From positions 2,882-66,261 of the forward strand of contig NYZE01000009.1 in NCBI GenBank assembly GCA_002685965.1: a DNA stretch of 63,380 nucleotides, given 5' to 3'. Source of the DNA: Planctomycetota bacterium. Its GTDB lineage: Bacteria; Planctomycetota; UBA1135; GCA-002748355. Below are positions 6,251-56,387 of the stretch, piece by piece (position 1 is the first letter of the stretch; each line of letters starts with the position of its first letter). Under the pieces are notes generated by a model, which was not told where the DNA came from, made no database searches, and saw nothing but the letters and a program-made list of their open reading frames with translations. The translations under genes were made by a program, and so were the position numbers.

Positions 6251-6260
6251 TGACAAGAAG

Positions 6261-13160: not shown

Positions 13161-13171
13161 CCGAGAGCATC

Positions 13172-28107: not shown

Positions 28108-29301
28108 CTACTTGCGAGTGTTCTTCTTCGCCTTGTTCTTGCTGGCCGGTCTGCTCGCCGGCCTGCTCGTCGGCCTGCTCGTCGGCCTGCTCGTCGGCTT
28201 ACCAAACAGCTGGACAAGGTCCGCGTAGCCGTGCTTGGCGAGGTCCTCGGCCGGAATGAAGCGCAAGGACGCCGAGTTGATGCAGTAGCGCAGCCCGGTC
28301 GGCGCCGGGCCGTCGTTGAAGACGTGGCCGAGGTGCGAGTCACCGTGTTTCGAGCGCACCTCTACCCGCGCCACACCGAGCTTGCGCTCGACGACCTGGA
28401 CGATGTGCTTGGCGACTAGAGGTTTGTAGAACGACGGCCAACCGGTACCGGATTTGAACTTGTGCTTCGAACTGAACAACGGCTCACCTGAGGCGATGTC
28501 TACGTAGAGGCCGTCGCGCTTGTTGTCCCAGTAATCGTTGTTGAACGGCTTCTCGGTGTCGTCGTGCTGCGTGACTTGGTACTGCAGCGGCGTCAGGCGC
28601 TTCTTGAGCTCGACCCGGGACGGCTTCTTCCATCGCTCTTCTGCCGCCCTGGCCGCGGCAATCTCGTCCTTCCAGACCCGCTTCAAGAAGCCCTCGCGAC
28701 CAGACCCGAGACGGTACGACTTGTAGTGCCTCGGGTTGGTCTTGTAGTAGTCCTGGTGATAGTCCTCGGCCGGATAGAACGCGTCGAACTTGGTGACCGG
28801 AACGACAATCGGCTTCTTGAAGCGACCGCTCTGGGCCAGTTGCTCCTTGGAACGCTCGGCGACTTTCCGCTGCACTTCGTCGTGGAAGAAGATCACCGGA
28901 CGGTACTGCCGGCCACGGTCCGCGAACTGACCGCCCGCATCGGTCGGATTCATGCTGCGCCAAAACACTGACACCAGCTTGTCGTAGCTGACACGTTTCG
29001 GGTCGAACACGATCTGGATCGCTTCGGTATGCCCGGTGCGACCGCTGGAAACCTGCTTGTAGGTCGGCCTCTTCTCGAGTCCGCCGCTGTAGCCGGAGAT
29101 CACCGAGCGCACGCCTTCGAGCTTCTCGAACGGTGGCTCCATGCACCAGAAACAACCACCCGCGAAGGTGGCGACCCGGTCGCCCTTCTGCTGCTTGGCG
29201 ACCTTGGCAGGCTTGCTGCCAGGCCGGGAGTCCTGAGCATGGACGGCCACGGCCGCGACTCCGGCCATGGCAAGGAGGAACATCTTTGATCGTTGTGACA
29301 T
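28108..29301 (-). CDS. msrAB: secreted fused peptide-methionine (S)- and (R)-S-oxide reductase MsrA-MsrB with a basic repeat tail
   Basis: ATG 29301 gives signal peptide [23 protein letters not shown]. The MsrA motif is [11 protein letters not shown]. The MsrB motifs are GTGWPSF and [10 protein letters not shown]...RYCINS. The C-terminus reads [29 protein letters not shown]. Confidence 0.9.
28151..28198 (-). repeat. four tandem 12-nt units (CTGCTCGTCGGC, first unit with 1 mismatch) inside the msrAB 3' end
   Basis: Read directly at 28151-62, 28163-74, 28175-86 and 28187-98. A degenerate fifth unit lies at 28139-50. The units encode the (P-T/A-S-R)n tail. Confidence 0.85.
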
Positions 29302-29542
29302 GAATGGCACCGCCTGCACGAGCGTCGGTCTACGACGCTCCACTGCACCCGTTCCCGACCTGCAACGCCGACGAGGATACAGATGATACAACGGTTACTG
29401 GCACCGAGGGATACGAAGGCGTGAGGCAAGCGACTTGTAGCCATCTCCGAGCGGGTGGCTCGCGTCGGCATAGAGGCTCTCGGCAGCGCGTTCGGAACGA
29501 TCACCAAGCTCATCCGCGCCACGATCAAATCGCTGCGCAAAT

Positions 29543-36264: not shown

Positions 36265-37257
36265 GTGGTGACCGAGATCTCCGCAGTCGCCGAGCGTATC
36301 GCGCAGGAATGCGCGTTTCTGGACGAGGTAGCCCGCGAGGTCGAAGGGGTGGTGGTCGGCCAGCGCGCCCTGCTCGACGGCATGCTGATCGGGCTGCTCG
36401 CAGATGGACACGTCCTCGTCGAAGGCGTTCCGGGCCTCGCCAAATCGCTCGCCGTGCAGTCGTTCGCGACCGCGCTCGGCGGCACCTTCCGACGATTGCA
36501 GTTCACGCCGGACCTCCTGCCTTCGGACGTGGTCGGCACGCAGGTCTACAACCCAAAGAGCGGTGAGTGGAGCGTGCGTGAGGGTCCGGTGTTCGCGAAC
36601 TTCGTGCTCGCCGACGAGGTCAACCGCGCGCCGGCCAAGGTGCAGTCGGCTCTGCTCGAGGCCATGCAAGAGCGACAGGTGACACTGTCTGGCGAGACCC
36701 ATGCCCTACCGGCACCCTTCCTCGTATTGGCGACCCAGAACCCGCTCGAGCAGGAAGGCACCTACGTGCTGCCCGAGGCGCAGATCGACCGCTTCATGCT
36801 CAAGGTCGTTGTCGACTACCCCTCGAAGGAGGACGAGGATCGCATCATCTTGCGCATGGCCACCAACGCCGAAAAGCCGCAGGCGAGCGTGGTCGCATCA
36901 CCGGAAAAAGTCCTGGCAGCGCGTGCCCTTCTCGATTCGATCTACGTCGACGACCTCGCGCGCGGCTACGTCGTCGACCTCGTGTTCGCGACGCGGAAGC
37001 CTGCCGACTACGGCATCGGTGAGTTGGCGCCACTCATCCTGTACGGCGCGTCGCCACGCGCCTCGATCGCCCTGACTCAGGCCGCGCGGGCACATGCCCT
37101 TCTGCATGGGCAAGCCTTCGTGACGCCGAACGACATCAAGTCCGTCGCCATGAACGTGCTGCGCCACCGCATCATCACGACCTACGAGGCGGAAGCCGAA
37201 GCCGTGACGGCCGACCAGATCGTGCAGAAGGTGCTCGACTCGGTCGCCGTTCCGTAG
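36265..37257 (+). CDS. moxR: MoxR-family AAA+ ATPase
   Basis: Motifs are [13 protein letters not shown] (Walker A), [31 protein letters not shown] (Walker B / sensor) and [12 protein letters not shown]. Confidence 0.9.
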
Positions 37258-37284
37258 GTCGGGAGAAGTTGCTTGTCCCCGGAG

Positions 37285-38430
37285 TCAGACCCCGTTGACC
37301 AACGAAACCACACCTTTGACGTAGCCGGGACGCTGGTGATCGCCTTCGAAGGCTGACGGTAAGGCGGCGAGCCCCCTGTAGCGATGCGTCAAGAGCGGGT
37401 CGACCTCAATGCGACCTTCCTGGAGCAAGCGCAGGCTGTCGCGATAGACGGTCGGGCGGCCATCGTCATCGAAGCCGCCCGAGCCACCGACCGAGACAAC
37501 GAGCGTCGGCTCCTTCCACTGGAGTTCGTTGAGCACGTCGAGCGACGCGTCGCCGTGGCCGATGCCATACATGCACACGGTCGCTTGCTTGCGCATCCAG
37601 CGCGGGATGTCGGCATAGATCGTGCCGGAGCCGGTGCATTCGACGACCAACTCGACACGGCGGCCGGACGTGGCATCGAGCACCGCCGCCGTCACGTCCG
37701 TGGTGGTCGGATCGATCACTTCCGCGCCGAAGCTCCTCGCCAACTCGCGTTTCGCCGCGTCGAGTTCGGTCACGAGGGCGAGGCCGTCGAAGCCCACGAC
37801 GTGCCGCAAGGTCTGCAGGAACAACAATCCGGCTGGACCGGCGCCGCAAATCAGGACGCTCTGCACGGGTCGCTGACCCCCGAACGAGTAGCGCGAGTTG
37901 GCTTGCCCAACCGCATCCCAGGTGTGCAGGATGCAGGCGAGCGGCTCGGTCAGTGCCGCCCGTGCCGACGACAGGTCGCTGTCGATGCGCACGGCATTGC
38001 GCGCCGAGATACCGATGAACTCGGCGAAGCCCCCCGGCAGGCCGGTGATGCCGTGCTCGCCATAGTGCGCACACTGGTGCGAGTCACCGCTCAGACAGTA
38101 CTCGCACGGCGGCTCACGCATCATGCTCATGCACGTGATGCCCTGATCGAGCACGACTCGGTCACCGATGTCGAGGTCGTGCACCTGGTTGCCTATAGCT
38201 TCGACTGTCCCCGCGATCTCATGCCCGAGCACCTGCGGCGACTCGGACAGAGGGACGGGCCTGCCGGCGGCATCGAAGTTGTAGTTGGACTCGCCGGAGA
38301 AGATGTGGAAGTCGGTGCCACAGACGCCGACGGTGTGCGGGCGCACGATCACATCATTCGAACCCAGCTCAGGGTCGGCGACCTCCTGAATCTCCATGCG
38401 GCGAACGCCGACGAGAACGCTGGCAAGCAT
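37285..38430 (-). CDS. Zn-dependent medium-chain dehydrogenase/reductase (sorbitol/threonine dehydrogenase-like)
   Basis: ATG 38430 gives MLASVLVGVRRMEIQEV. Motifs are GVCGTDFHI, GHEIAGTV, CEYCLSGDSHQC (structural Zn) and ICGAGPAG (Rossmann fold). Confidence 0.8.
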   Translation of the reverse strand: MLASVLVGVRRMEIQEVADPELGSNDVIVRPHTVGVCGTDFHIFSGESNYNFDAAGRPVPLSESPQVLGHEIAGTVEAIGNQVHDLDIGDRVVLDQGITCMSMMREPPCEYCLSGDSHQCAHYGEHGITGLPGGFAEFIGISARNAVRIDSDLSSARAALTEPLACILHTWDAVGQANSRYSFGGQRPVQSVLICGAGPAGLLFLQTLRHVVGFDGLALVTELDAAKRELARSFGAEVIDPTTTDVTAAVLDATSGRRVELVVECTGSGTIYADIPRWMRKQATVCMYGIGHGDASLDVLNELQWKEPTLVVSVGGSGGFDDDGRPTVYRDSLRLLQEGRIEVDPLLTHRYRGLAALPSAFEGDHQRPGYVKGVVSLVNGV

Positions 38431-38468
38431 CCGGTAAGCTTGCGACCCCGAAGACGCCTTGTCGAACA

Positions 38469-39392
38469 ATGACACAAACCGACCACCACGAATCCGAGCT
38501 GGCTGAGCTCCTCGAAGAAGTTCGCCGGATCGAAGCCCAGAGCAGCCGACTCGTCGCGGGCGTCATGGCAGGCGGCTACAGCTCGGTGTTTCGTGGCTCG
38601 GGCATCGAGTTTGACCAGATCCGCGAGTACGTCGACGGCGATGATCCGCGTGCGGTCGATTGGAACGTCACGGCACGCGCCGGCCGGCCCTTCATCAAGG
38701 AACACGTCGAGGAACGCGAACGCACGCTGCTCTTCCTGCTCGACCTGTCGGCGTCGATGACTGGCGGCTTCGGCGTATGGTCGGCGCGCCAGACGGCGGC
38801 GCGCGTCTGCGCTTGCCTGGCCCTATCGGCCGTACAGAACGACGACCGGGTCGGGCTCATCGGCTTCAGCAATCGCGTCGACAAGTTCGTGCCGGCGCGC
38901 AAGGGCGTGCGGCACCAGCTCCGCATCCTGCGCGACTGCTTGACTCTGCCCGGAAGTAGCGCAACCACCGACATGACGCCGGCGATCGAGTTCGCGGCGC
39001 GCATCGTGCGCCGGCGCTCGATCCTCTTCCTCGTCTCGGACTTCCTGTGTGACGGATGGCAGCAAGCACTGACGTTGTGCGCGCGCCACCACGACGTGGT
39101 CGCGGTACGACTCTCGACGCCCGAACTGACGCCCGCGGATGATGCAGATCTGGTGCGATGCCGCGACCCCGAGACGGGGCAGGACACGATCATCGACTGG
39201 GGTAGTCGACACGTGCGCGCGGCCTGGACCGATCGCGTGGCCGAGTGGCAGGCACGGACCAGCGCCGACCTGCGCCGGGCGAAGGTGGACCTGATGGACG
39301 TCGCCGTGCCGCGTGAGCCCGACCATGACGCGATCGCCCGGCCGATCCTGCGTTTCTTCCGCTTGCGCGAGCTGCGCGCTGCCAAACGGTGA
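38469..39392 (+). CDS. DUF58 protein (MoxR-associated, VWA-like)
   Basis: EYVDGDDPRAVDWNVTARAGRPFIKEHVEERERTLLFLLDLSASM is the canonical DUF58 core. Confidence 0.85.
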   Translation: MTQTDHHESELAELLEEVRRIEAQSSRLVAGVMAGGYSSVFRGSGIEFDQIREYVDGDDPRAVDWNVTARAGRPFIKEHVEERERTLLFLLDLSASMTGGFGVWSARQTAARVCACLALSAVQNDDRVGLIGFSNRVDKFVPARKGVRHQLRILRDCLTLPGSSATTDMTPAIEFAARIVRRRSILFLVSDFLCDGWQQALTLCARHHDVVAVRLSTPELTPADDADLVRCRDPETGQDTIIDWGSRHVRAAWTDRVAEWQARTSADLRRAKVDLMDVAVPREPDHDAIARPILRFFRLRELRAAKR

Positions 39393-40186
39393 TCGCCCTC
39401 GCCCTGATCGTCCTCGTAGCAGCGGGACCAGACGTCGAGTTGCGCATTACCGCTGAGTCGACCCGCGTCGACTTCGGCAAGGCGTTCGAGCTCACCGTCG
39501 TGCGCACTTGGAACAAGAAAACCTCAGCCGCCCCTTGGCTCGACGATGCGTTGACGCCGCTCGTCGTGCGACTGGTCGAACGATCGCAGCGCGAAGTCGG
39601 CGACCGGTTCGAGGAAACACGTCGCTACCGCGCCTACGCATTCAAGACTGGCACGGTGACCTTGCACGTTGCGCCAGCACCGGCGCTGCAGTTCCAGGTG
39701 CGACCCGTGCTCGAAACATCGACTACGGGAGCAGTCGAGTTGCCGCGCGGACCGTTCCGCCTGCCGACGCCGTGGCCGCTATGGCCGCTTCCCGCGGCGG
39801 CCGCAACCATCGCCGTGGCTTGGTTCCTTCGACGTAGCATGGGCCACCGCGGCACCGGAACAGTTGGACTGAGAGGACCTGCCTTGCAACGCCTCGCTGC
39901 GCTCCACGAGCGGCAACCGACGAACCCCGACGAACTGCGAGCCTGGCACGTCGAAGCGTCCGCCGTCCTGCGCGGCTACGTCGACGCCCGCTTCCAGATC
40001 GGTGTTCCCCAAATGACGACGGAGCAGGTGGCGCGGGTGACCGGGCTCGTTCCGCGCACGACGCTCGTAACGTTGCTGGCACCCTGCGACCTCGCCAAGT
40101 TCGCGCGACACCAGCCGTCGGCCAACGACCGCGACGCGCTCGTTACCCGGATCCAGCAGTTCATCGAGGCCAAACACGGGCCATGA
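39389..40186 (+). CDS. DUF4381-like single-pass membrane protein of the Bat operon
   Basis: GTG sits in a GTGA overlap. The central TM segment PLPAAAATIAVAWFLRR is followed by ALQRLAALHER...LRGYVDARF, the pattern seen between DUF58 and batA in Bat loci. Confidence 0.55.
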   Translation: MIALALIVLVAAGPDVELRITAESTRVDFGKAFELTVVRTWNKKTSAAPWLDDALTPLVVRLVERSQREVGDRFEETRRYRAYAFKTGTVTLHVAPAPALQFQVRPVLETSTTGAVELPRGPFRLPTPWPLWPLPAAAATIAVAWFLRRSMGHRGTGTVGLRGPALQRLAALHERQPTNPDELRAWHVEASAVLRGYVDARFQIGVPQMTTEQVARVTGLVPRTTLVTLLAPCDLAKFARHQPSANDRDALVTRIQQFIEAKHGP

Positions 40187-41157
40187 CCACGATCCTCGAT
40201 CCCTGGATGTTGCTGCTCGGCCTGCTCGTTCCAATCGCAGCAGGGCTAAAGGCGCGGCGCGGAACAGCGGCAGTGCGCTTCGCGCCTGCACGCCTGGCCG
40301 GCCGCGACCTGCCCCGCTCGTGGCGCACGCTTCTGGTTCCTCTACCACGCGTGCTGCAAGTCCTCGGCTTGCTCGGCATCGTCATCGCCCTGTCGCGCCC
40401 GGCGTACCGCGTGCCGCTGCCACGCACGACCGAGGGCATCGATATCCTGTTGTGCCTCGACGTGTCGTCGTCGATGGCCACCAACGACATGGATCCGAAG
40501 CTGACGCGACTCGACCTGGCGAAGCAGGCCGCGACGAGTTTCTCTGCGGGCCGGCCACACGATCGCATCGGCCTGTTGTGCTTCGCGCGGTACCCGGATC
40601 TGGTTTGCCCATTGACGCTCGACCAAACGGCGCTCGCGGACTTCCTCGCTGGCGTCGGCCACGTCGAGGCAGACGGCGCCGAGGACATGACAGGTATCGG
40701 CACCGCGGTCGCGCGCGCGGCACAGGTGCTGCGAACCAGCCTCGCCAACTCCAAAGTCGTCATCCTCTTGACCGACGGTGAAGAGAACGTCGCAACCCGC
40801 GAAACACCGAACGAGATCGGACCAGCCAAGGCGGCACGCCTGTGCGAGCGGCTTGGCGTGCGCGTGTACACCGTCGCCGCCGGAATCGGCAAGCGCCGCC
40901 GCACGGGCGAGTGGGTGCCCGTCGACACGACACAAGTGTCACGACTCGCGGAACGCACGGGTGGCGCCTTCTTCGCGGCACGCGACGCAACCGCGATCGC
41001 CGCTGTCTACACGACGATCGACGAGCTGGAACGGTCACGGTTCGAGGGCCCGCGCTACCGCATCGAGGACCGTTTCCTGCCCTTCCTCTCGACCGCCGTC
41101 CTGCTCCTGCTACTCGGCAGGTGCCTCGCCGGGACCGTGTTCAGGGTGCTGCCGTGA
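40183..41157 (+). CDS. batA: VWA-domain membrane protein BatA
   Basis: ATGA overlap. It has an N-terminal TM segment, MIDAS LCLDVSSSM, LLTDGEEN and a C-terminal TM segment. Confidence 0.8.
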   Translation: MTTILDPWMLLLGLLVPIAAGLKARRGTAAVRFAPARLAGRDLPRSWRTLLVPLPRVLQVLGLLGIVIALSRPAYRVPLPRTTEGIDILLCLDVSSSMATNDMDPKLTRLDLAKQAATSFSAGRPHDRIGLLCFARYPDLVCPLTLDQTALADFLAGVGHVEADGAEDMTGIGTAVARAAQVLRTSLANSKVVILLTDGEENVATRETPNEIGPAKAARLCERLGVRVYTVAAGIGKRRRTGEWVPVDTTQVSRLAERTGGAFFAARDATAIAAVYTTIDELERSRFEGPRYRIEDRFLPFLSTAVLLLLLGRCLAGTVFRVLP

Positions 41158-42134
41158 TCTGGCCGGAAGCGATGCTCTTCCTGTTGTTGGTGCCGCTGAC
41201 GTGGCTGCTGTTGCAGAGATTGGACCGCGTTCGCCGCGACCGCCTCAAGCGCTACGTCGGAACGCGGATTGGCGCGGCCGTGGGCGATAGCGGCGGGGAT
41301 CGCTGCCGCGTGCTATTCAGCAGCGCCCTGCTGCTCGCAGTGGTGGCGGTCATGCAACCCACATGGGGAACCGCAGTGCGGCACATCGACCAACTCGACG
41401 TCGACGTCGTGGTCTGCCTCGACGTATCACGCTCGATGCTCGCGCGCGACGTAGCCCCGAGTCGGCTAGCGCACGCACACACACAACTGCGCGAACTATC
41501 GGGAGCAGTGCGGGGCGGCCGGCTCGGCCTCGTCGCCTTCGCGGGGTCGGCGCGGCTGCGTGCACCGTTGACCAAGGACATGCAGTCGTTCGCGCAACTC
41601 GCCGAGCAAACCGACTCGCTGACGGTCGAACTCGGCGGCACCAACCTCGGCGCCGCGCTCGAGGTCGCACTGAAGGCCCTGCCGGATCCCGGCGACAACC
41701 CGGCCGCGGTGCTCCTGATCACCGACGGCGAGGACAACGAACAGCGCGGCCTTGCTGTCGCAGCGACGTGCAAGGAGCGCGGCATCACTGTTCACTGCGC
41801 CGGGATCGGCTCGGAGCTCGGCAGCAAGATCGTTGTCAGGGATGGCGACCGCGACACCTTCCTGCGTTCGCGGGGCGGCGACGAGGTCGTTTCCGCCATG
41901 GACGCCCCAGGCCTGCGCGGCATCGCGTCGAGCAGCAGAGGGACCTTCATCGACGCGAGCGCTTCCGAGCAAGCACTCGCCGACCTGTACGCCGCTCGCA
42001 TCCTGCCGATGGCTCGCAAATCACACGCCGAGCGTGACGGAAGCGAGCGCAAGAACCGCTTCCAGTGGCCGCTCTTGGCAGCATTCCTCCTGTGGCTGAT
42101 AGAGCTGTTCCTATCCGACCGGAGACGATCGTGA
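41154..42134 (+). CDS. batB: VWA-domain membrane protein BatB
   Basis: The GTG in a GTGA overlap gives VIWPEAMLFLLLVPLTWLLL. It has MIDAS VCLDVSRSM, LITDGEDN and a C-terminal TM segment. Confidence 0.8.
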   Translation: MIWPEAMLFLLLVPLTWLLLQRLDRVRRDRLKRYVGTRIGAAVGDSGGDRCRVLFSSALLLAVVAVMQPTWGTAVRHIDQLDVDVVVCLDVSRSMLARDVAPSRLAHAHTQLRELSGAVRGGRLGLVAFAGSARLRAPLTKDMQSFAQLAEQTDSLTVELGGTNLGAALEVALKALPDPGDNPAAVLLITDGEDNEQRGLAVAATCKERGITVHCAGIGSELGSKIVVRDGDRDTFLRSRGGDEVVSAMDAPGLRGIASSSRGTFIDASASEQALADLYAARILPMARKSHAERDGSERKNRFQWPLLAAFLLWLIELFLSDRRRS

Positions 42135-42766
42135 GACTCGCTTTCTCGATCGCCCTGCTGGCACTGACCTCGGCATGCACGCACGAGGAGTCGCCAGAGA
42201 CATTGTTCAATCACGCCCTCGCGGCGATGACGGACGACAGCATGCGCGCCGCGGAGATCGCGGCCGAGAAGGCCGCTGCCCGTGGCGGCTCGGACTTCAC
42301 GGCGCTGCGCGACTTCCTGCTCGGCAACGCCGCGTTTCGGCGCTGCGAACGGGCCGCGCCTCAGTCGGACACCCGCCAAGCGGATCCAACGACCTACGAC
42401 GACGCCATCGCCAACGTCGAACGCGCGCTGGGCTTCTGGCAACGATCGGCGGCCAGCCGGGCCGACTGGCCGGAAGCGAGGCGCAACGTCGAACGCGGCC
42501 TCCGCATGCGCAAGGCCCTGCGCAGCAGACGCGAACAAGCTGAGAAGGAACGACGCAAGACGCTCAAACAACCCGAGCGCAACAAGGAGCAGGGCGAAGA
42601 AGAAGAGCAGACTCGGAACGCTCTCGCGCAACGTGACCCACGGGCTCTGTCGCGAACTCAGCTCGAGCAACTTCTGGCCTGGCTCGACGCCAAAGAACAG
42701 CAGAAGCGTGCACTACGCAGCGCGCGGCAACGCGGTCGCTCACGCGATGTGGAGCGGGACTGGTGA
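42131..42766 (+). CDS. batC: BatC-like lipoprotein with a highly charged C-terminal region
   Basis: GTGA overlap. Lipobox LLALTSAC. It has a helical TPR-like N-half and a Lys/Arg/Glu/Gln-rich tail (EKERRKTLKQPERNKEQGEEEEQ...QLEQLLAWLDAKEQQKR). Confidence 0.5.
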   Translation: MRLAFSIALLALTSACTHEESPETLFNHALAAMTDDSMRAAEIAAEKAAARGGSDFTALRDFLLGNAAFRRCERAAPQSDTRQADPTTYDDAIANVERALGFWQRSAASRADWPEARRNVERGLRMRKALRSRREQAEKERRKTLKQPERNKEQGEEEEQTRNALAQRDPRALSRTQLEQLLAWLDAKEQQKRALRSARQRGRSRDVERDW

Positions 42767-44148
42767 AGCGACTTCTCATCAGCGTTTGTGCGCTCGCGTC
42801 CGTTGCTGGCTCGCAGAGCGGTCGCGTCCTGGTCGAGGTCAAGGCCGACCGCAGTCGCTACTTCGTGCAGCAGGTCGTTCGTGTCACGCTGCGCGTGCGC
42901 GTGGAGCGGAGCTTTCTCGAGAAGAACCTCATCCAACCGTTCCGGCGTGAACTCCAGCTCCCGCTGCGCGTCGACGCGCAGTGGCTCGATCGACTGCCAC
43001 ACGCGGCCATACTGCCAACCACAAAGGGCGCTCCCGTGCTCGTGGTCAACGGCAAGCTGGCGACCGCGAGGCGCATCGACGACGGCACGCAGTCGTTGGT
43101 CGTGTTCGAGTTGGTGCGCAGCTACCTGCCCGAACGACCCGGCACGCTCTCACTCGCTGCGCCGCGGGTTCGCTATTCCTATGCAACGAAGTTCCGCGAC
43201 GACTTCCTGAACGGCCGCCTGCCGGACGACCGACACGAGGGAGACGCGGTTGGGCCGAAACTGGAGCTCGACGTCGCTGTATTGCCCGACGGGGCGCCGA
43301 CAGAGTTCACGGGAGCGGTCGGACGCTTCACCGTGCGCGCCGACGCGGCGCCACGCGAGCTGCGTGCTGGCGAGAGCCTCAAGCTGAGCGTCACGATCGA
43401 GGGCAAGGGCAACCTGATGCAGTTCGCGCCGCCATCACTGGCGGAGCTCGACGGGTTTCACGTCCGCGGCAGCGTGGAGGCCAGCGACGCCAACCAACGC
43501 ACAATCGTCTACGACCTCGCGGCATTGCGCAGCGACGTGCACCAGGTTCCGCCCATCAGCTTCGCCTTCTTCGATCCAGGGCCGCCGCCGGGCTACCTGA
43601 CACTGCACACGCGAGCGATCGCCATCAAGGTCAGCGGCACTACAGCCGCAATAGTGGAGCCCGTACGATCCACGCCAGAGCGGCGACCGATTGCCGGCGT
43701 GAACGACATCTTCGGCATCAGAACCTCGCACGCTGCCGAACCCAACAAACTGTCGGTCGGCGCGGTCGCGGTCGCGATCACCTCACCGTGGCTACTTGCG
43801 GTCCTCGCCTTCGGCCTGTGGCGGTACGCCGAGCAACGACGTCGACGCGGACCGCCGCCACCGGATGGGGTCGCGTTGTTCCGCGAGCGTGCCAAGACGG
43901 CGAGTGTGCGCACGGCCTTCGTCGAGTTCCTCGCGGCACGATTGGCATGCCCGGCGGCGGCGGTGATCGGCCCCGAACTATCGAAGCGACTTGCCAACGC
44001 TGGGGTCGACAACGAGTCGGCACGGCAGGCCGACGCGCTGACCGGCGAACTCGTCGCCGAGCTCTACGGCGGCACGCATGGTAATCGCTCGACCGAAGCT
44101 GCCACTCTCGTGGCAAAGCTCGACGCTGCCTGGCGGGAGACACCGTGA
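42763..44148 (+). CDS. batD: BatD-like (oxygen tolerance) protein
   Basis: GTGA overlap. It has a signal peptide, a beta-rich body and a TM segment near the C-terminus (AVAITSPWLLAVLAFGLWRY), in the operon position after batA-C. Confidence 0.65.
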   Translation: MKRLLISVCALASVAGSQSGRVLVEVKADRSRYFVQQVVRVTLRVRVERSFLEKNLIQPFRRELQLPLRVDAQWLDRLPHAAILPTTKGAPVLVVNGKLATARRIDDGTQSLVVFELVRSYLPERPGTLSLAAPRVRYSYATKFRDDFLNGRLPDDRHEGDAVGPKLELDVAVLPDGAPTEFTGAVGRFTVRADAAPRELRAGESLKLSVTIEGKGNLMQFAPPSLAELDGFHVRGSVEASDANQRTIVYDLAALRSDVHQVPPISFAFFDPGPPPGYLTLHTRAIAIKVSGTTAAIVEPVRSTPERRPIAGVNDIFGIRTSHAAEPNKLSVGAVAVAITSPWLLAVLAFGLWRYAEQRRRRGPPPPDGVALFRERAKTASVRTAFVEFLAARLACPAAAVIGPELSKRLANAGVDNESARQADALTGELVAELYGGTHGNRSTEAATLVAKLDAAWRETP

Positions 44149-44831
44149 TCGCACTGGTATTCGCGTTGCTGTTCGCCGGCGACCTCGACCGGGCCAACCG
44201 CGCCTACGAGGCCGGCCGCTGGGCCGAGGCTGCCGCGCTCTATCGTGCTGCGCTCGACGGACCGGGGTCGTCGCACGCCACGCTGTGGCACAACCTGGGC
44301 AACTGCGCGTTTCGCCTCGACCGTTCGCCCGAAGCGATCCTCTACTACCGGCGCGCTCTACACTACGCGCCGGACAATACCCAAGCGCAGTGGAACCTTC
44401 ACCTCGCCGAGCGGCGACTCGGTGTGACGAGGGCGCCGCCGTCGCTGCCGCGCCGACTGTTAGCGGGAATCGACGCCTACCCACGGCTCGCGCTCGCGTT
44501 GGCGGCACTGCTGCAGGCTGCAGGTCTCGTGGCGGTGCTGCGCACCAGCGGACGCGCGCGCCGCTTGCAGTTGGCCGCGGTCATCGCGGTCGGACTCGCA
44601 CTCGGTAGCCGCGTGGCCATGACCCAATGCTTCGCCCAGCCGACCGCGGGAGTGATCCTCGAGCCGAGCATCGCCGTCCGCCCCGACCCGCACGCGACCC
44701 TTCCAGTGATCGCCCGCCTCGACGCAGGCCAGCTCGTGCGTGTCGAAGAAGCCTCCGATCGGTGGGCCCGCATCACGCATGCCGCCGGCAGCGGCTGGGT
44801 CGAGCGGGCCGTAGTGGGCCTAGTCGAGTAG
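44145..44831 (+). CDS. batE: BatE-like TPR plus SH3b protein
   Basis: GTGA overlap. The TPR segment is WHNLGNCAFRLDRSPEAILYYRRALHYAPDN, followed by two TM segments and a C-terminal SH3-like QLVRVEEASDRWARITHAAGSGWV. Confidence 0.6.
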   Translation: MIALVFALLFAGDLDRANRAYEAGRWAEAAALYRAALDGPGSSHATLWHNLGNCAFRLDRSPEAILYYRRALHYAPDNTQAQWNLHLAERRLGVTRAPPSLPRRLLAGIDAYPRLALALAALLQAAGLVAVLRTSGRARRLQLAAVIAVGLALGSRVAMTQCFAQPTAGVILEPSIAVRPDPHATLPVIARLDAGQLVRVEEASDRWARITHAAGSGWVERAVVGLVE

Positions 44832-47414: not shown

Positions 47415-48647
47415 CTAGCCTGCATAGGCGTCCAGAAACCGATCGTAGTTGTCAGCGATCGTACCCGCGGGTCGCGGATCGAGGCGCGCGACGGATTGGG
47501 GATCAGCGAGACAGCGCTCGATGACGCCTGCCATTGCCTCCGCGTTGCCGGCCTCGAAGCGGAAGCCATTCACGCCATCTTCGATGACTTCGACCATGCC
47601 GCCGAGGTCAGAGCAGATCACGCCAACGCCAGCTTCGAAGGCCTCGAGGATGACGAACGGCGTGTTCTCGTACCAGGTCGAGGGGACGACGAGGAGGTCG
47701 GTGTCCGCCATGACATCACTCACGGATGCGCGATCGAAGGCTCCGGGAAAACTGATGCGCTCGTCGCCCGCGGCGCGCTGTAACAGGTCCGCGATGTAGT
47801 CGCGGAACATGTATTCCTCGGTGCGACCGTGCACGGTGAGGTGCACGTCACCCGAAACCTTCCGCACGGCGTCAACCGCGACGTGCGCCGCCTTCCACGG
47901 CGACAGCACGCCGACAAACGCCAAGCGCAGGGGCGAGCGCGGTCGCTGCACCAATCGACGCTCGACGCGACCGGGCTCGAGTCCGTATCGCACGACCTCC
48001 ATGCGGTCGGCAGGGAAGCCGTTCTTCTCGAACATGCCGGCCAAGAACCGCGACGGCGCGATAACCGCGTCGACCGAGGCGAGTCGACCGAGCAACGTGT
48101 CCTTGCGTTGCAGAAGAGCGTCGTGGCGAGCATCGCCGGCGACGATGTCCGGATACGCGCACTCGATGCAGCCGCGGCCACCATCTGGTGGGCCTTCACA
48201 CACTTCGCCATCGCTACGTAGCAGCGTGAATCGTGGACAAAGGTACCAGAAGTCCATCAGGTTGACGACCGTGCGCACGCCGCGCGCGACCGCGACGTCG
48301 AGCAGGTCCGAGCCGAGGTTGCGGAGGTGAAAGAAGTGCACCGCGTCGGGCTGCTGCTGGTCGAGCACACTACCGAACAACCGCGCCACGTGCGGGTTCT
48401 CGTAGTCGCGCAGGACATCGTTCGGTTGCAGGCCCCGCCAGTGACGCAGACGCAGCACCGTGAAGCCGTCGTACGGCTGGTCGTAGAGCAAGAGCGGTGG
48501 ATCCTGCCGCGCGGGATCAGGGTCGAGCGACAACACGACGACTTCGTCGCCGCGGCGACGGGCTTCCCGCGACGCCGCAAGGCAATACTGCTCGGTCCCT
48601 GAGAAGCAGTCTGGAAAGTACTGGTGGATCACATAGAGCAGTTTCAC
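47415..48647 (-). CDS. family 4 (GT-B) glycosyltransferase, paralogue a
   Basis: GTG 48647 in a GTGA overlap gives VKLLYVIHQYFP. Motifs are the Cys-rich insert MDFWYLCPR...C..PPDGGRGCIEC and the C-terminal VVPSTWYENTPFVILEAFEAG (EX7E). Confidence 0.8.
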   Translation of the reverse strand: MKLLYVIHQYFPDCFSGTEQYCLAASREARRRGDEVVVLSLDPDPARQDPPLLLYDQPYDGFTVLRLRHWRGLQPNDVLRDYENPHVARLFGSVLDQQQPDAVHFFHLRNLGSDLLDVAVARGVRTVVNLMDFWYLCPRFTLLRSDGEVCEGPPDGGRGCIECAYPDIVAGDARHDALLQRKDTLLGRLASVDAVIAPSRFLAGMFEKNGFPADRMEVVRYGLEPGRVERRLVQRPRSPLRLAFVGVLSPWKAAHVAVDAVRKVSGDVHLTVHGRTEEYMFRDYIADLLQRAAGDERISFPGAFDRASVSDVMADTDLLVVPSTWYENTPFVILEAFEAGVGVICSDLGGMVEVIEDGVNGFRFEAGNAEAMAGVIERCLADPQSVARLDPRPAGTIADNYDRFLDAYAG

Positions 48648-49909
48648 ATCACTGCTCCGACTTCGGCGTAGACACCGCAAAGCTCGCGGGCGAGATCCTC
48701 GACCCGACGTACATTGCTCGGCGCGCCGCCGAGCCGAGCTGCCAACCCGGGCTCATCGACGAAGCGTTGCAGGATGCCCGCGAGTGCGTCGACGTCTCCG
48801 GCCGGAAAAGTGAACCCGTTGACGCCTTCCTCGATCCCATCGGTCAGCCCACCTACCTGCGACGCCACGACCGCACAGCCCGCCAACATGCCCTCGCGCA
48901 GGGTCAGCCCAAACACCTCGTGCCAGAGCGGCGGCACGACGAGTACATCGATACGCCCTAGCAGCGCCGGCAGGTCGCTGTGCGCATACGTGCCGAGAAG
49001 CTCGACCGGGTTCTCGGCCAGCACGCTCGCCACGAGCTCGCGGATGCGATCGCCGTAGTCCGTCACCTGGTAGAATGGAGGACAGTTGCCGGCAAGCAGC
49101 AGCGATGCACTGCCGGCTGGCAAACGGTCGAAGGCCTCGACGATCAAGTGCGTCCCCTTCGACGGAATTAGCGTGCCGACAAAACCGACGCGCAACCGGT
49201 CTGAAGGCGACCGCTGCACACCGACGAACGGCGCATGGTCCTGGCCCTGCAGCGCAACCCTGACGTGGTCAGGAGCGACACCAAAGCCGACGAAGCGCTC
49301 GCGGCAAGCGGCGGACGGCGTCACCAGGAGGTCGGGCTTCGCCAGCACCCCACGCAGCCAATCGTGCAACTCCGCGACGACCGTCACATCGTCCTGATCG
49401 GCGCTCGTCAAGTGCGGCCAGGTCGACGCGATGCACGGGCCGCACTGCACGGGCTCGGCTTGGTCGCACGACCGCAGCTCCGGGTGGAACATCTGTCCGC
49501 GCGGGCACATCAGGTAGTAGTCGTGCAGCGTCATGACGCATGGCACGCCCTGGGCACGGATCGCCTCCAGGCATGAGGCGCCGATGCCGGCAAAGTGGTG
49601 CACATGCACGACGTCGGGCTTGCTGCGCTCGAGAAAGGCGGCAAACGCCCGCCCCAGGGCGGGATCGTCATAGAGCTCTCGAAACGACCGCGTGCGGCTC
49701 CAACGGAACACGACGCGTGTCGTCGCAAAGCCGTCGAACTCAGTCTCGTAGGTCGCGAACTCGTCCACATCGTCGCGGGTACCGCGCGCGTAGAAGATGA
49801 CTTCGTGCCCATCACGACGCAACACGCGCGCGACCTCGAGCGTGTGTTGTTCGACGCCGCCGACCTGCTCCGGCGGAAAACCGCACGTGACGAAGAGCAC
49901 GCGGGTCAT
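48644..49909 (-). CDS. family 4 (GT-B) glycosyltransferase, paralogue b
   Basis: Motifs are MTRVLFVTCGFPPEQVGGVEQH, HDYYLMCPR...C...VQCGPC and VVPPLWHEVFGLTLREGMLAG (EX7E). Confidence 0.8.
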   Translation of the reverse strand: MTRVLFVTCGFPPEQVGGVEQHTLEVARVLRRDGHEVIFYARGTRDDVDEFATYETEFDGFATTRVVFRWSRTRSFRELYDDPALGRAFAAFLERSKPDVVHVHHFAGIGASCLEAIRAQGVPCVMTLHDYYLMCPRGQMFHPELRSCDQAEPVQCGPCIASTWPHLTSADQDDVTVVAELHDWLRGVLAKPDLLVTPSAACRERFVGFGVAPDHVRVALQGQDHAPFVGVQRSPSDRLRVGFVGTLIPSKGTHLIVEAFDRLPAGSASLLLAGNCPPFYQVTDYGDRIRELVASVLAENPVELLGTYAHSDLPALLGRIDVLVVPPLWHEVFGLTLREGMLAGCAVVASQVGGLTDGIEEGVNGFTFPAGDVDALAGILQRFVDEPGLAARLGGAPSNVRRVEDLARELCGVYAEVGAVM

Positions 49910-51864: not shown

Positions 51865-51883
51865 GGCCCCGGTTGTCGGGGCC
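51865..51883 (-). terminator. hairpin 5 nt after stop 51888 (terminator candidate)
   Basis: GGCCCCG-GTTGT-CGGGGCC has a 7-bp GC stem. A 12-nt palindrome CCGCCATGGCGG follows at 51837-51848. There is no U-tract on the minus strand. Confidence 0.35.
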
Positions 51884-51887
51884 AAGC

Positions 51888-52874
51888 TCATTGTTTGTAC
51901 GGATCCTTGACCCAATCGACGCCGTACATGTTGATGAACGTCGGCGCGATGCGCGCGCCCTTGGCGGCGAGCGAAAACTCGAATCCGATCGGCTCTGCGG
52001 CGGTGTACATGGCTCGCCCGTTCAGTTGCGTACGGCCCCAACGCTCGCCGAGCGCGACCATCTCAAACTTGGTGAACACGCCGCGCTTGCGGTCGTAGAC
52101 CGCGCGGCCGAGCAGCTTCGTTGCGACACCGTGCGGCCAATCCCGCTGAGGCTTCCAGTAGTTGCCGCCGAGCAACCACTTGTCCGACGATGCCTTCGTC
52201 GTGCCACTCAGCTGCACCTCCACGAGGTCTCCGTCCTGTCCGGTGACTTCACTCGTGATCTTGCTGCTCGTGACTTCGGACGGTGCGTAGGGAATCGTCT
52301 GCCCATGCACGTTGTCGACCAGGTGGAAGCGCGTGAGGCGTTCGACAATGAGTCGCGACACCGGCCCCTTTTGTCCCGGGGTAAGTTGATCGGGCAGGAA
52401 GCCGCGCGCTTCCTTTTTCGCGAACCAAACCTGATCCGGGTTAAACGGCATGACCGCAGCCGCAGCGGGATCGAGCTTCTTCGGCAGGTCACGTGCCGTG
52501 CGGACCAAAACGAGACCAGCGCTGGGATAGCTATCCTCCCAACGCGGGCCAACCTCGATGCTCGTGCCGACGGGCAAGGAGCGTTCCTCCGTGGACAGCT
52601 GGTCCCATTTCTCAAGCGCACCCTCGAGCATCTTGGCAACCAGGTCGGCGTTGAGCGAGTTTCGCCCGGCCAGGCGCGCACCGCCAGCCGTGCATACATA
52701 GATGCCCTGCATCGTTCCGCGGCTCGGTTCCTCCGTGCCACGGAAAATCTTGCGGAACACCCTGCACTCGGGTCCCGCATCGCGCTGCAGTCGGTAGACC
52801 TCGTCAGCAACAGGTACGAACTTCTTCGTCAGCTCGATCAGCTTCTCTTTGGACCAGACAGACCGTCGGCCCAC
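51888..52874 (-). CDS. hypothetical protein; probably the C-terminal 328 aa of a TGA-containing thioredoxin-like protein (see 52887-53114)
   Basis: It has a good-looking coding frame, a called GTG start and no signal peptide. It is in the same frame as the upstream 75-aa ORF, separated from it by TGA plus 4 sense codons. Confidence 0.65.
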   Translation of the reverse strand: MGRRSVWSKEKLIELTKKFVPVADEVYRLQRDAGPECRVFRKIFRGTEEPSRGTMQGIYVCTAGGARLAGRNSLNADLVAKMLEGALEKWDQLSTEERSLPVGTSIEVGPRWEDSYPSAGLVLVRTARDLPKKLDPAAAAVMPFNPDQVWFAKKEARGFLPDQLTPGQKGPVSRLIVERLTRFHLVDNVHGQTIPYAPSEVTSSKITSEVTGQDGDLVEVQLSGTTKASSDKWLLGGNYWKPQRDWPHGVATKLLGRAVYDRKRGVFTKFEMVALGERWGRTQLNGRAMYTAAEPIGFEFSLAAKGARIAPTFINMYGVDWVKDPYKQ

Positions 52875-52878
52875 GACG
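52864..52878 (-). promoter_or_regulatory. candidate SECIS-like hairpin downstream of the in-frame UGA
   Basis: The mRNA can form CGUCG-UGGGC-CGACG starting 9 nt after the last base of the UGA. It is a 5-bp GC stem with a G-rich 5-nt apical loop. It is short and not diagnostic on its own. Confidence 0.3.
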
Positions 52879-52886
52879 CCATTGCC

Positions 52887-53114
52887 TCAGGTGCAACCCA
52901 GTGGGTGACCGTTCATGACCCAAACCAGGACTGGCTTGTCCTCGGCGTTGGCGCGGCGTAGACCGGCCGCGAACGACGAGAGCCACGGGATCCGTTGCCA
53001 CCTGATCTCCTTCGCCGCGGGCCGCAAAGGGTCTCTCCATGCGGAGAAGTTGTCCTCGGAGAGCTGCGCGAGAATGGGCGACACAAGCAAGAGCGACACG
53101 AGCATGGAACGCAT
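52887..53114 (-). CDS. N-terminal signal peptide plus first half of a thioredoxin-like domain, ending C-T-TGA (candidate selenocysteine codon)
   Basis: MRSMLVSLLLVSPILAQ...IRWQRIPWLSSFAAGLRRANAEDKPVLVWVMNGHPLGCT followed by TGA at 52889-52887. On its own this ORF would encode a truncated fold. Confidence 0.55.
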   Translation of the reverse strand: MRSMLVSLLLVSPILAQLSEDNFSAWRDPLRPAAKEIRWQRIPWLSSFAAGLRRANAEDKPVLVWVMNGHPLGCT

Positions 53115-53137
53115 ACGCGAGAGTGTAACCTAGTGCC

Positions 53138-54290: not shown

Positions 54291-56387
54291 CTAGCGCACG
54301 TAGGACGGGAAGCGCTGCTGCAACTGCTTCATGAGCGGCGCGGCCGCTGCCTTTCCAACGACTGACTCGACCGCGACGGCGTGCACGTACAGGAACGACG
54401 GATCCGACGGATCGAGGCGCACGGCTTCGGTGAATGACGACAGCGCCGGCTTGCGCTCGCCAATGCGCACGAGGTACAGGCCGAGCGCGTGGTGCAACGC
54501 CGCGGCACGCGGATTGCGCGCCAGACCCTCACGCAAGAGGCGACCACACTCGGCCTCTCGACCCTGAGCTCGGTGCAGGTCCGCCAGGTTGGCGCGCGCC
54601 ACGACAAAATCGGGCTGCAGACGTAGAGCTTCCTCGTAGGCGTCCTGAGCTCTCGCCACGTCACCCTGCTGCGCGAAGAACACGCCGAGGTTGACGTGCG
54701 CCTGAGCTTGGTCCGCGGCGATCTTCTGCGCGTCCAGATACTCCTCGAGCGCCTTGGCCGGTAGCGCAGCACGGCCCGCCAGCGCGCGCACGGCGGCGAT
54801 GCGGACGCTGCGGATCGGGTCGGACAGCAGTGGCACGGCTGCGTCCGGCACGACCAGCCCCACGGCAGCCGCGCGCACGAGCGGATCCGCGTCCTCCACC
54901 GCGCGCCGGGCCACGCGTTCCGTCTTGGCATCGGCCCATGAGGCGAGCAGCCGCAACGCGGTCGCGCGCGCGATCGCCGGTCGGTCCGCGTTCTGCACGA
55001 GCGCACGCAGCATGTCGGGCGCACCCTTGCCGAAACTGCGCCCCGCGTTGAGCGCATGGGCGAACTCGGGTCCGCGCAGACGTTCCGCACCGAACCGCGT
55101 GCGCACCTCACCCGCCGCCCACGCCGCATCCTTGTCGGCATGGCAGCCAGTGCAAGCATTCGGCGTCCCGAGCTTCACGGACAAATCCGGGCGGGGCACC
55201 TGCAGCGCGTGATCGCGACGGCGGTCGACGCCCATGTAGACCCGTTCCGGCATGTGGCAGTCGACGCACTGGGCGCCAGGCGTAGCCGGCGCGTGAAAGT
55301 GATGCTGGCCCGTGTCGTAGCGGTTCGCGTCGTGACAACGCACGCACAGGGCGTTGCCCTCGGCGCGCAGGGCCAACCCATGCGGTTCGTGGCAGTCAGC
55401 GCAGGCGACGCCCTTGTGGTACATGCGGCTCTGCACAAATGAGCCGTAGACATAGACCTCGTCCTGGATCTGCCCGTCGGCACGGTAGAGCCCCTCGTCA
55501 AGCAAGGCGAGTTCGTGCGAGTCGGCAAGCGGCTGGCCGTGCCGATAGTCTTCGATCAAGGCCGTGCGCCGCGAGTGGCAGCGCGCACAAGTCTCGACCT
55601 GGGCGTTGGACTGTAGCGGCATGCGGCGTTGCGCCGTCTGCTCACCGGTCGCGAAGAACCACGCTTCCGCTTCCGAGGTCTTCAGGTGCAAGACCAGGCC
55701 GTCGTCAGGACCCTGGCGCGCCGGGTCCTGACGCGCCCATGCGACATGGCGCGAACCGGGTCCATGGCAGGCCTCGCACGCCACGTTGAGCTCTTCCCAC
55801 TTCGTGTCGTAGCGATCGGCCTTCGCGTCGTAGCGCTTTTGCAGCTGGGTCGAGTGACACTCGGCGCAGGTGTGGTTCCAGTTCTGCACGCGCCCGGTCC
55901 AGTGCAGTGGATCCGTGTGCGTCACGCGCTGTCCCGGATAGAGGTGGTACCAGCGTTGCCCGCCCTCGGCCTTGGGACGCGCGTCCCAGCACCAGGGAAG
56001 CGGCTGCAACCGACCGCCTTCGAAGGCGACCAGGTATTGCTGCAGCGGATGCACGCCAAAGGTGTAAGCCACTTCGAAGTCGGCGAGCACGCCGTCAGGA
56101 CCGTCGGTCTGGACGATGTGCTTGTCGCCGCGCCGCAGGAAGGTCGTTGTCACCTTCCCTTCGTTAGCAGTGGCGTTGCCGAAGTCACCGAGCACGGTCG
56201 AGGCCTTGGCCGGCTGCATCGCCAGATCGTGGTGCGAGCCACGCCAGCGTTGGTACTCGGCCGCGTGACACTCACGACACGAAGCCACTCCGACATAGGT
56301 CGGGGAGGCCTCCACGGCTTTGTCCTGGCTACATGAGGCGAGGACCGCGAGGAGCCACGCTGCTATCGGTCGGAGTGTTCGAGGCAC
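54291..56387 (-). CDS. octahaem c-type cytochrome (cytochrome c554/NrfA-like multihaem) fused to C-terminal TPR/HEAT repeats, lipoprotein
   Basis: GTG start with lipobox LAVLASC. There are eight CxxCH motifs: CRECH, CAECH, CEACH, CARCH, CADCH, CVRCH, CVDCH and CTGCH. The C-terminal ~250 aa have TPR-like repeats (NLGVFFAQQGDVARAQDAYEEALRLQPD...). Confidence 0.8.
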   Translation of the reverse strand: MPRTLRPIAAWLLAVLASCSQDKAVEASPTYVGVASCRECHAAEYQRWRGSHHDLAMQPAKASTVLGDFGNATANEGKVTTTFLRRGDKHIVQTDGPDGVLADFEVAYTFGVHPLQQYLVAFEGGRLQPLPWCWDARPKAEGGQRWYHLYPGQRVTHTDPLHWTGRVQNWNHTCAECHSTQLQKRYDAKADRYDTKWEELNVACEACHGPGSRHVAWARQDPARQGPDDGLVLHLKTSEAEAWFFATGEQTAQRRMPLQSNAQVETCARCHSRRTALIEDYRHGQPLADSHELALLDEGLYRADGQIQDEVYVYGSFVQSRMYHKGVACADCHEPHGLALRAEGNALCVRCHDANRYDTGQHHFHAPATPGAQCVDCHMPERVYMGVDRRRDHALQVPRPDLSVKLGTPNACTGCHADKDAAWAAGEVRTRFGAERLRGPEFAHALNAGRSFGKGAPDMLRALVQNADRPAIARATALRLLASWADAKTERVARRAVEDADPLVRAAAVGLVVPDAAVPLLSDPIRSVRIAAVRALAGRAALPAKALEEYLDAQKIAADQAQAHVNLGVFFAQQGDVARAQDAYEEALRLQPDFVVARANLADLHRAQGREAECGRLLREGLARNPRAAALHHALGLYLVRIGERKPALSSFTEAVRLDPSDPSFLYVHAVAVESVVGKAAAAPLMKQLQQRFPSYVR

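Follow-up and report, generated by a model that had tools for sequence, protein, structure and literature searches.

Introduction

Thioredoxin folds recur among prokaryotic selenoproteins. A 2026 inventory of 119 prokaryotic families lists selenocysteine (Sec)-containing Trx, Prx and DsbA-like proteins, "Trx7/PDZ domain" proteins and a thioredoxin-like protein, Sec.1, with a CxU motif (PMC13188914, Table 1). In bacteria, the selenocysteine insertion sequence (SECIS) is a stem-loop just 3′ of the UGA with a small apical loop that includes a G (PMC1088965). Here we describe a gene of this general design in a 63,380-nucleotide stretch of DNA from a Planctomycetota bacterium (contig NYZE01000009.1, positions 2,882 to 66,261; hereafter, the window is this whole stretch, and all positions are counted from its first nucleotide). 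Comparative sequence evidence makes it very likely that the minus-strand interval 53114..51888, presented in annotations as two open reading frames (ORFs), is a single Sec-decoded gene; its product is almost certainly an exported thioredoxin-fold protein of about 408 residues, with an internal TGA read as Sec.

The gene probably represents a previously unrecognized family of selenoproteins, large in size and with a nearly obligate dependence on Sec. Its members, in 871 clusters at 50% identity and in 310 or more GTDB species (mostly Planctomycetota and Marinimicrobia), would be exported proteins that combine a C-T-U thioredoxin-fold center with a domain of novel fold. The family is mostly marine, and is found in protein databases almost only as two fragments.

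A Reading Frame Interrupted by a Single TGA

The minus-strand interval 53114..51888 is a single frame of 408 codons whose sole internal stop is the TGA at 52889-52887. An upstream ORF of 75 amino acids (aa) with an ATG start (52887-53114) is followed, in the same frame, by a 328-aa ORF with a GTG start (51888-52874), and the spacer between the two comprises only the TGA and four sense codons (GGC AAT GGC GTC). Read through, the coding sequence (51888..53114, minus strand) yields 408 residues with Sec at position 76, ends at the TGA at 51890-51888 and is colinear with its homologs across the junction, ...AEDKPVLVWVMNGHPLGCT*GNGVVGRRSVWSKEK..., where the peptide would read ...VMNGHPLGCT-U-GNGVVGRR.... 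An earlier note, made from the sequence of this DNA alone, had reported the same ORF coordinates, shared frame, spacer and read-through peptide, and all of these hold exactly. The proposed Sec codon, U76 (52887..52889), stands two codons after Cys74 (TGC, 52893..52895), its proposed selenylsulfide partner within the C-T-U motif, which is Cys in 84 of 85 related loci (Pro in the remaining one, L010). Residues 1-17, MRSMLVSLLLVSPILAQ (53064..53114), form a predicted signal peptide of the Sec (secretion) type, read from the sequence and from a crude hydrophobic N-terminus test; the same test detects signal-peptide-like N-termini in at least 71 of 78 homologous loci, in line with the export signal that the earlier note had proposed.

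A TGA-split pair of this sort is, by itself, not above chance in the window: at 65.5% GC, 228 same-frame ORF pairs with at least 45 aa on each side are split by one TGA, none of the others being a convincing selenoprotein candidate. TGA is also an ordinary stop in this genome, ending 24 of 49 mapped window genes (TAG ends 21 and TAA four). The case therefore depends on comparative evidence. A competing explanation is that the two ORFs are two genuine genes, perhaps coupled, which encode a secreted peptide of about 58 residues ending at the TGA and a cytoplasmic 328-aa protein starting at the GTG at 52874. Every gene caller and database treats them so, and the stop usage, the chance frequency of such pairs and the presence of a GTG four codons after the TGA in the window all favor this explanation, which has to be set against the homologs.

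An antisense ORF of 362 aa on the plus strand (51873-52961) covers most of the selenoprotein gene. It is a typical high-GC artefact, which ORF picking ranked by length would prefer to the real, TGA-split gene.

Conservation of the TGA Across Homologs

A search with the fused protein returned 63 homologs, all 271-343 aa long and matching no more than 80% of the query; each is either without a name or labeled "hypothetical protein," and the precomputed Pfam annotation is "-" for all of them. On three distant contigs, a small same-frame ORF precedes the called gene, and reading through the stop gives W-[AV]-M-N-G-H-P-L-G-C-T-*-[GN]-N-G-x-x-G-R-R. Scanning GTDB with a single genome for each species yielded 310 loci; by record title, the best 80 of these comprise 43 from Planctomycetota, 10 from Marinimicrobia/Neomarinimicrobiota, 22 unclassified, one from Acidobacteriota and four others. 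The codon is TGA in all 85 related loci as well as in the window: none of its three positions has any entropy, and it is never replaced by TAA, TAG or a sense codon. It lies within the conserved context W-x-M-N-G-H-P-L-G-C-T-[TGA]-x-N-G-x-x-G-R-R, which has invariant residues on both sides, and the entropy by codon position follows a coding pattern of about 0/0/1-2 bits that continues unbroken through the TGA.

The database records mirror the split. All homologs of the 75-aa upstream ORF are themselves fragments (51-132 aa), and 11 contigs have the identical 75-aa fragment on record. When precisely the 332 residues that follow the TGA were used in an exhaustive HMMER search, 871 representative clusters (50% identity) were retrieved, of which 189 had E ≤ 1e-30. 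Among the top 150, about 94% start just after the TGA position, and nine are uninterrupted. Four of the nine have Cys opposite the TGA, as C-N-C (P0190, P0141), Q-A-C (P0183) or S-T-C (P0207). Cys forms usually outnumber Sec forms in selenoprotein families; here, Cys-for-Sec homologs exist but are few and remote, and some members have lost the redox residues altogether.

These patterns leave little room for two genes. The stop is TGA in 86 of 86 sequences, never TAA or TAG; no frame shifts or indels separate the halves; the codons of the supposed spacer vary synonymously while its protein sequence is conserved; the first possible start downstream of the TGA varies from codon +4 to codon +92, none being conserved, and codon +5 is usually GCG; and uninterrupted homologs exist. 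Separate genes are thus extremely improbable. Conservation of the TGA at an identical codon in the 85 related loci and the window marks the ORF pair as one gene at the level of sequence, and the earlier note's proposal of one exported protein of about 408 aa, mis-split into two ORFs, is upheld by the colinear homologs, the codon periodicity through the TGA and the lack of a conserved downstream start. Its placing of Sec at the redox position of a thioredoxin fold is supported by the TGA or Cys that homologs have at this codon and, as set out below, by the modeled fold, a conserved hairpin after the UGA and a Sec-containing selD on a related contig.

Fold and Domain Architecture

An uninterrupted C-T-A homolog, P0174, was modeled with AlphaFold2 using an alignment of 138 fragments and full-length forms. 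The model (predicted local distance difference test score, pLDDT, 91.9; predicted template modeling score, pTM, 0.90) has the topology beta1-alpha1-beta2-alpha2-beta3-beta4-alpha3, in which beta1 spans residues 58-63 and alpha1 residues 75-84, while the residue equivalent to Sec is 72, three residues ahead of alpha1. According to this model, the TGA site is the beta1-alpha1 loop of a thioredoxin fold, the position at which the earlier note, in proposing Sec at the redox site, had placed it. Since the TGA falls between beta1 and alpha1, termination there would cut the domain in half, and neither half would be expected to fold alone, a further point against two genes.

The top match of the model in a Foldseek search of the PDB is human AGR3 (3ph9_B; probability 1.00, template modeling (TM) score 0.64 on the target), and the sole Pfam signal at E ≤ 1 is Thioredoxin_7 (PF13899), which is sub-threshold at E 0.13 and 12.9 bits against a gathering cutoff of 27. 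The domain in the window, assigned from the P0174 model and the Foldseek match to the AGR/Thioredoxin_7 type, would extend over approximately residues 40-178 (52581..52997, minus strand; boundaries mapped by alignment). It straddles the TGA and is not confined to the 75-aa upstream ORF, where the earlier note had placed it; the C-terminal domain is therefore about 224 aa long, not about 300 as that note had it. The active site has one residue between Cys and Sec (C-T-U) in 84 of the 85 related loci and in the window, a spacing that differs from CxxC/CxxS. The C-x-U spacing is also all that remains of a proposed link to Sep15: with Thioredoxin_7 the only family at E ≤ 1, the Pfam search detects no homology to Sep15/SelM. 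A second, downstream Cys ("EC..F") was considered as an obligate resolving residue and rejected, being present in only 46 of 82 loci.

The C-terminal domain, residues 185-408 (224 residues; 51891..52562, minus strand), was modeled from the window's own sequence with high confidence (pLDDT 97.0, pTM 0.92) as a beta-rich domain with a sheet of long antiparallel strands. Foldseek found no PDB match to it at E ≤ 1e-3 (best TM 0.27), and a profile sequence search of the PDB found no homolog. By these searches, the domain is without a Pfam family or a solved structural relative.

Some family members carry additional domains. In P0150 (1541 aa), a T-G-D variant that lacks Cys at either position is fused to a Ser/Thr protein-kinase N-terminus plus a long repeat region; P0141 (738 aa), one of the C-N-C forms, has a C-terminal extension matching SecDF_P1_head; and C-terminal extensions are also present in several truncated calls of 716-1169 aa.

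A Conserved Hairpin Downstream of the UGA

The earlier note had also pointed to a hairpin after the UGA, CGUCG-UGGGC-CGACG (52864..52878, minus strand). The window's sequence can form it, at −4.7 kcal/mol, but it is not conserved: in the family, 62.8% of alignment cells pair, no better than controls, with a mean folding free energy (dG) of +1.9 kcal/mol, and it was rejected as a functional element. The expectation of a SECIS-like hairpin nevertheless stands, as a conserved one lies four nucleotides (nt) further 3′ (52874-52858, or the overlapping 52873-52850).

Three hairpin models were compared on an ungapped alignment of 73 sequences, with nt numbered from the U of UGA. Codon choice is constrained in this region: Gly +6 is GGC in 64 of 64 sequences, whereas all four Gly codons are used at −3 and at +3; the third base of codon +8 is G in 70 of 73; and Ser +9 is always UCN, never AGY. 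The family-conserved model, H-A, is a 17-nt SECIS-like hairpin that starts 12 nt after the UGA (nt 16-32; 52858..52874, minus strand), with a stem of 5-7 base pairs (bp) and an invariant G at nt 23 in its apical loop; at the family level it thus has the form of a bacterial SECIS, a stem-loop just 3′ of the UGA with a G in a small loop. In H-A, 90.5% of cells pair, as against 28-52% in slid registers, and compensatory changes occur at three pairs, one of which, 21-27, is CG in 69 sequences, UA in three and unpaired in none. The covariation exceeds that in 499 of 500 shuffles, a control that overstates significance because the loci are related, and it is limited to few pairs because the hairpin overlaps the conserved peptide G-R-R-S-V-W. 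The family mean dG is −7.2 kcal/mol, compared with −0.5 for a synonymous-codon null, and RNAalifold recovers the H-A core independently. H-A is absent from four Cys-form genes, one of which encodes the same G-R-R as GGG-CGC-CGC.

Registers vary among loci, and a stable hairpin of some kind, looped at nt 22-30, is present in each. In the window, the minimum-energy fold of the 44 nt is H-B extended (52850..52873, minus strand), an alternative, overlapping register in which a 9-bp stem with a single bulged U carries the apical loop GGUCU; its core reaches −6.3 kcal/mol. As a family element H-B was rejected (82% pairing, no covariation, breaks in the G-D-R-R-S-V-F subfamily), and it is kept only as the register that the window prefers. 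AGA-type sequences have a third register.

A subfamily that lacks the Ser codon (G-R-R-V-W-S; L003, L008, L013, L015, L027, L066 and L077) is identical from +18 to +35 of the TGA, GGCCGGCGTGTCTGGTC, in seven of seven members despite protein divergence elsewhere. Its invariant GGCCGG-CGUGU-CUGGUC, with a 6-bp stem and a 5-nt loop, looks like a second SECIS variant.

Proposed Decoding and Function

In the proposed sequence of events, a ribosome would reach the UGA at 52889-52887; a short hairpin rich in G+C, beginning 12-15 nt past this codon and having its apical loop at nt 23-30 (counted from the UGA), would recruit SelB carrying Sec-tRNA(Sec); and Sec would be inserted in place of termination. 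The predicted product consists of a signal peptide, an AGR/Thioredoxin_7-type thioredoxin domain whose beta1-alpha1 loop would hold the invariant N-G-H-P-L-G-C-T-U, and the C-terminal beta-rich domain. The fold and motif suggest a periplasmic or extracellular thiol/selenol oxidoreductase that would cycle through a Cys74-Sec76 selenylsulfide, possibly with peroxidase-like activity, and we infer that the C-terminal domain binds a substrate or ligand.

Selenocysteine Machinery and Weighing of the Evidence

Complete selA/B/C/D sets are present in several Planctomycetes (PMC4807772). ARAGORN found no tRNA-Sec near the family gene in 60 related loci. A motif scan of related-locus DNA gave a single exception to the lack of sel genes: on L020 (JAUIEE010000313.1), 1.9 kb from the family gene, positions 4600-5664 of the plus strand encode selD (TIGR00476 equivalog, 300.8 bits against a cutoff of 125); in alignment, an in-frame TGA of this gene (4651-4653) stands opposite the Cys that is catalytic in E. 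coli SelD (LTDYAACAG*AAK). By this alignment the gene encodes a Sec-containing SelD, same-contig evidence for the Sec trait in one carrier. In its annotation the gene begins only at the Met after the TGA.

Several results weigh against Sec decoding of the window's gene, or against parts of our account of it, in addition to the limits on H-A covariation given above. Neither selA, selB and selD nor tRNA-Sec was found in the 63-kb window (ARAGORN, Rfam, and the Pfam annotation of 49 mapped genes). The other five of the nine uninterrupted homologs read S-A-S, A-T-S, C-T-A, C-G-R and T-G-D, placing Ser, Ala, Arg or Asp at the site, and the scaffold can therefore function without a redox residue there. 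H-A is weak in the window itself (−3.8 to −4.3 kcal/mol, with four G-U pairs), which prefers the H-B register, so that either register is a candidate for the one that SelB would bind. The generic fold stability of the 45 nt after the TGA gives a mean z of only −0.34 against a synonymous-codon null. This measure was set aside as uninformative, the validated fdhF SECIS itself reaching only z −1.33 against shuffles, and structure-specific tests were therefore used. No redox partner gene is conserved nearby, synteny among 82 unique loci being only at clade level, and the catalytic function proposed above is drawn from fold and motif only.

Part of this evidence could be taken to mean that the UGA is read through without Sec, e.g., by a near-cognate Trp, Cys or Arg tRNA, by a suppressor tRNA or through reassignment of UGA, to give a selenium-free full-length protein. 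The missing Sec machinery in the window, the unremarkable overall stability of the downstream RNA and the tolerance of Ser, Ala, Arg or Asp at the site in some homologs would fit. However, TGA ends 24 of 49 window genes and therefore is not reassigned, and the loci come from several phyla with the standard code. The hairpin is position-specific, with a spacing like that of fdhF; synonymous constraint maintains it, and Cys forms have lost it; relatives with a sense codon most often have Cys at the site, beside a Cys in the thioredoxin active-site loop; and a Sec-containing selD lies on one family contig. Read-through without Sec is accordingly very unlikely.

A different possibility is that the family consists of true selenoproteins while the window's copy, a recently stranded gene, is poorly or not expressed, its genome having lost the Sec trait or its SECIS having drifted. 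The window's H-A is among the weakest of the family (compared with the mean of −7.2 kcal/mol), and the window holds no sel genes. Yet all 408 codons form an intact frame, no family-invariant residue is missing, the alternative 9-bp register with its GGUCU loop is stable in the window, the identical 75-aa fragment on 11 contigs suggests a maintained gene, and sel genes would not be expected in as little as 63 kb. A stranded copy is, on balance, improbable, and Sec decoding of a functional gene remains the preferred reading.

Genomic Neighborhood

The gene is flanked at short range by a divergent Zn-dependent dehydrogenase: the gap between the selenoprotein ATG (53114, minus strand) and the dehydrogenase GTG (53138, plus strand) is only 23 nt (53115-53137). 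Probably at least one of the two genes starts further in (Met4 at 53105; an ATG at about 53159), or else the promoters extend into coding sequence. Other neighbors in the window are an FKBP-type isomerase, a BamB/PQQ-type propeller protein, three glycosyltransferases and a multihaem cytochrome c fused to TPR repeats (54291-56387, minus strand). In the window (47415-49909) and in three unrelated loci (L005:12251-14617; L087:6141-7172; L089:963-1994 and 5136-6236), two of them with Cys forms, glycosyltransferase genes of the GT4 family lie no more than a few kb from the family gene; the recurrence could be due to chance, as such genes are abundant in these genomes.

Farther away, the window contains five or six tandem paralogs of the amidohydrolase family (Amidohydro_1/3; 4664-14575, plus strand), one of which is a 902-aa double-domain form, and an 862-aa protein with a planctomycete cytochrome c domain (PSCyt1; 16979-19567, minus strand) that supports an origin in Planctomycetota. 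A fused MsrA-MsrB (PMSR and SelR domains; 28108-29391, minus strand) has an N-terminal extension of about 70 residues and no in-frame TGA. A BatA-D/MoxR-type cluster (36265-44831, plus strand) comprises an AAA_3 MoxR ATPase, DUF58 and VWA proteins, BatD and a TPR/SH3 protein.

Implications

If this account is correct, the prokaryotic selenoproteome gains a widespread family that is unusual in being exported, in its C-x-U motif and in its overwhelmingly Sec form. Selenium use in abundant marine Planctomycetota and Marinimicrobia would have been under-counted, which bears on estimates of selenium demand in these groups, and the family may perform a redox reaction outside the cytoplasm in which sulfur would poorly replace selenium. 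A systematic annotation error would be corrected as well, with hundreds of "hypothetical protein" entries, of 51-132 aa and of roughly 300-340 aa, recognized as fragments of a single gene. Catalogues could have missed the family because relatives with the Cys form are few and distant; selenoprotein finders that rely on Sec/Cys homology may have a blind spot here. For SelB recognition outside Proteobacteria, the natural SECIS variants (at least 73, with two registers in competition) make a useful data set, and the C-terminal domain, confidently modeled yet lacking a solved relative, is a target for structural and functional work.

Comparison With Known Systems

Comparison with the 119 families of the inventory (PMC13188914, Table 1) revealed no entry with a matching architecture; NCBIfam release 20 gave no matches at E ≤ 1; and the signature peptides are absent from the supplementary sequences of Global Ocean Sampling (GOS) and from all indexed papers. 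The family nevertheless shares several features with bacterial thioredoxin-fold selenoproteins: a UGA at the redox position in the beta1-alpha1 loop, Cys-containing homologs, a small hairpin with a G in its loop directly 3′ of the UGA, and annotation that splits or truncates the gene. It differs from them in that no NCBIfam or Pfam model of any listed family matches it, in its C-T-U within N-G-H-P-L-G-C-T-U, in being exported and fused to a 224-residue beta-rich domain, and in the dominance of the Sec form, reflected in the start of about 94% of the top 150 clusters just after the TGA.

The AGR/ERp18 (TXNDC12) group of Thioredoxin_7 (PF13899) supplies both the best structural match, AGR3, and the only Pfam signal, and its members, secretory-pathway proteins with a single thioredoxin domain, resemble the present family in these respects. 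By contrast, the family described here is bacterial, is sub-threshold for this group by sequence, has a longer active-site loop with C-x-U in place of CxxC/CxxS, and carries an extra C-terminal domain. Sep15 has in common with it a thioredoxin-like fold, the C-x-U spacing (here C74-T75-U76) and the secretory pathway, a resemblance of motif only: Sep15/SelM are eukaryotic and have a SECIS in the 3′ untranslated region and a UGGT-binding domain, which is absent here.

The closest parallel for the hairpin is the SECIS of E. coli fdhF, in which G23, U24 and U17 have roles. Its sequence was confirmed inside fdhF in 5,419 of 5,426 E. coli genomes. Both elements are 17-nt stem-loops, starting 11 nt (fdhF) and 12 nt (the family) after the UGA; the upper stem-loop occupies nt 15-31 with the loop at nt 22-25 in fdhF, and nt 16-32 with the loop at nt 23-25 in the family consensus. 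The apical loop is centered on nt 23-24 with G at nt 23, and GGUC lies at or near the apex. The family element differs in its loop of 3-5 nt (G-N-C), in that U24 is not conserved and no bulged U interrupts the 5′ strand, and in having two overlapping possible registers, its binding by SelB being putative. The mechanism is the one that is standard in bacteria, and the system is not of a new kind.

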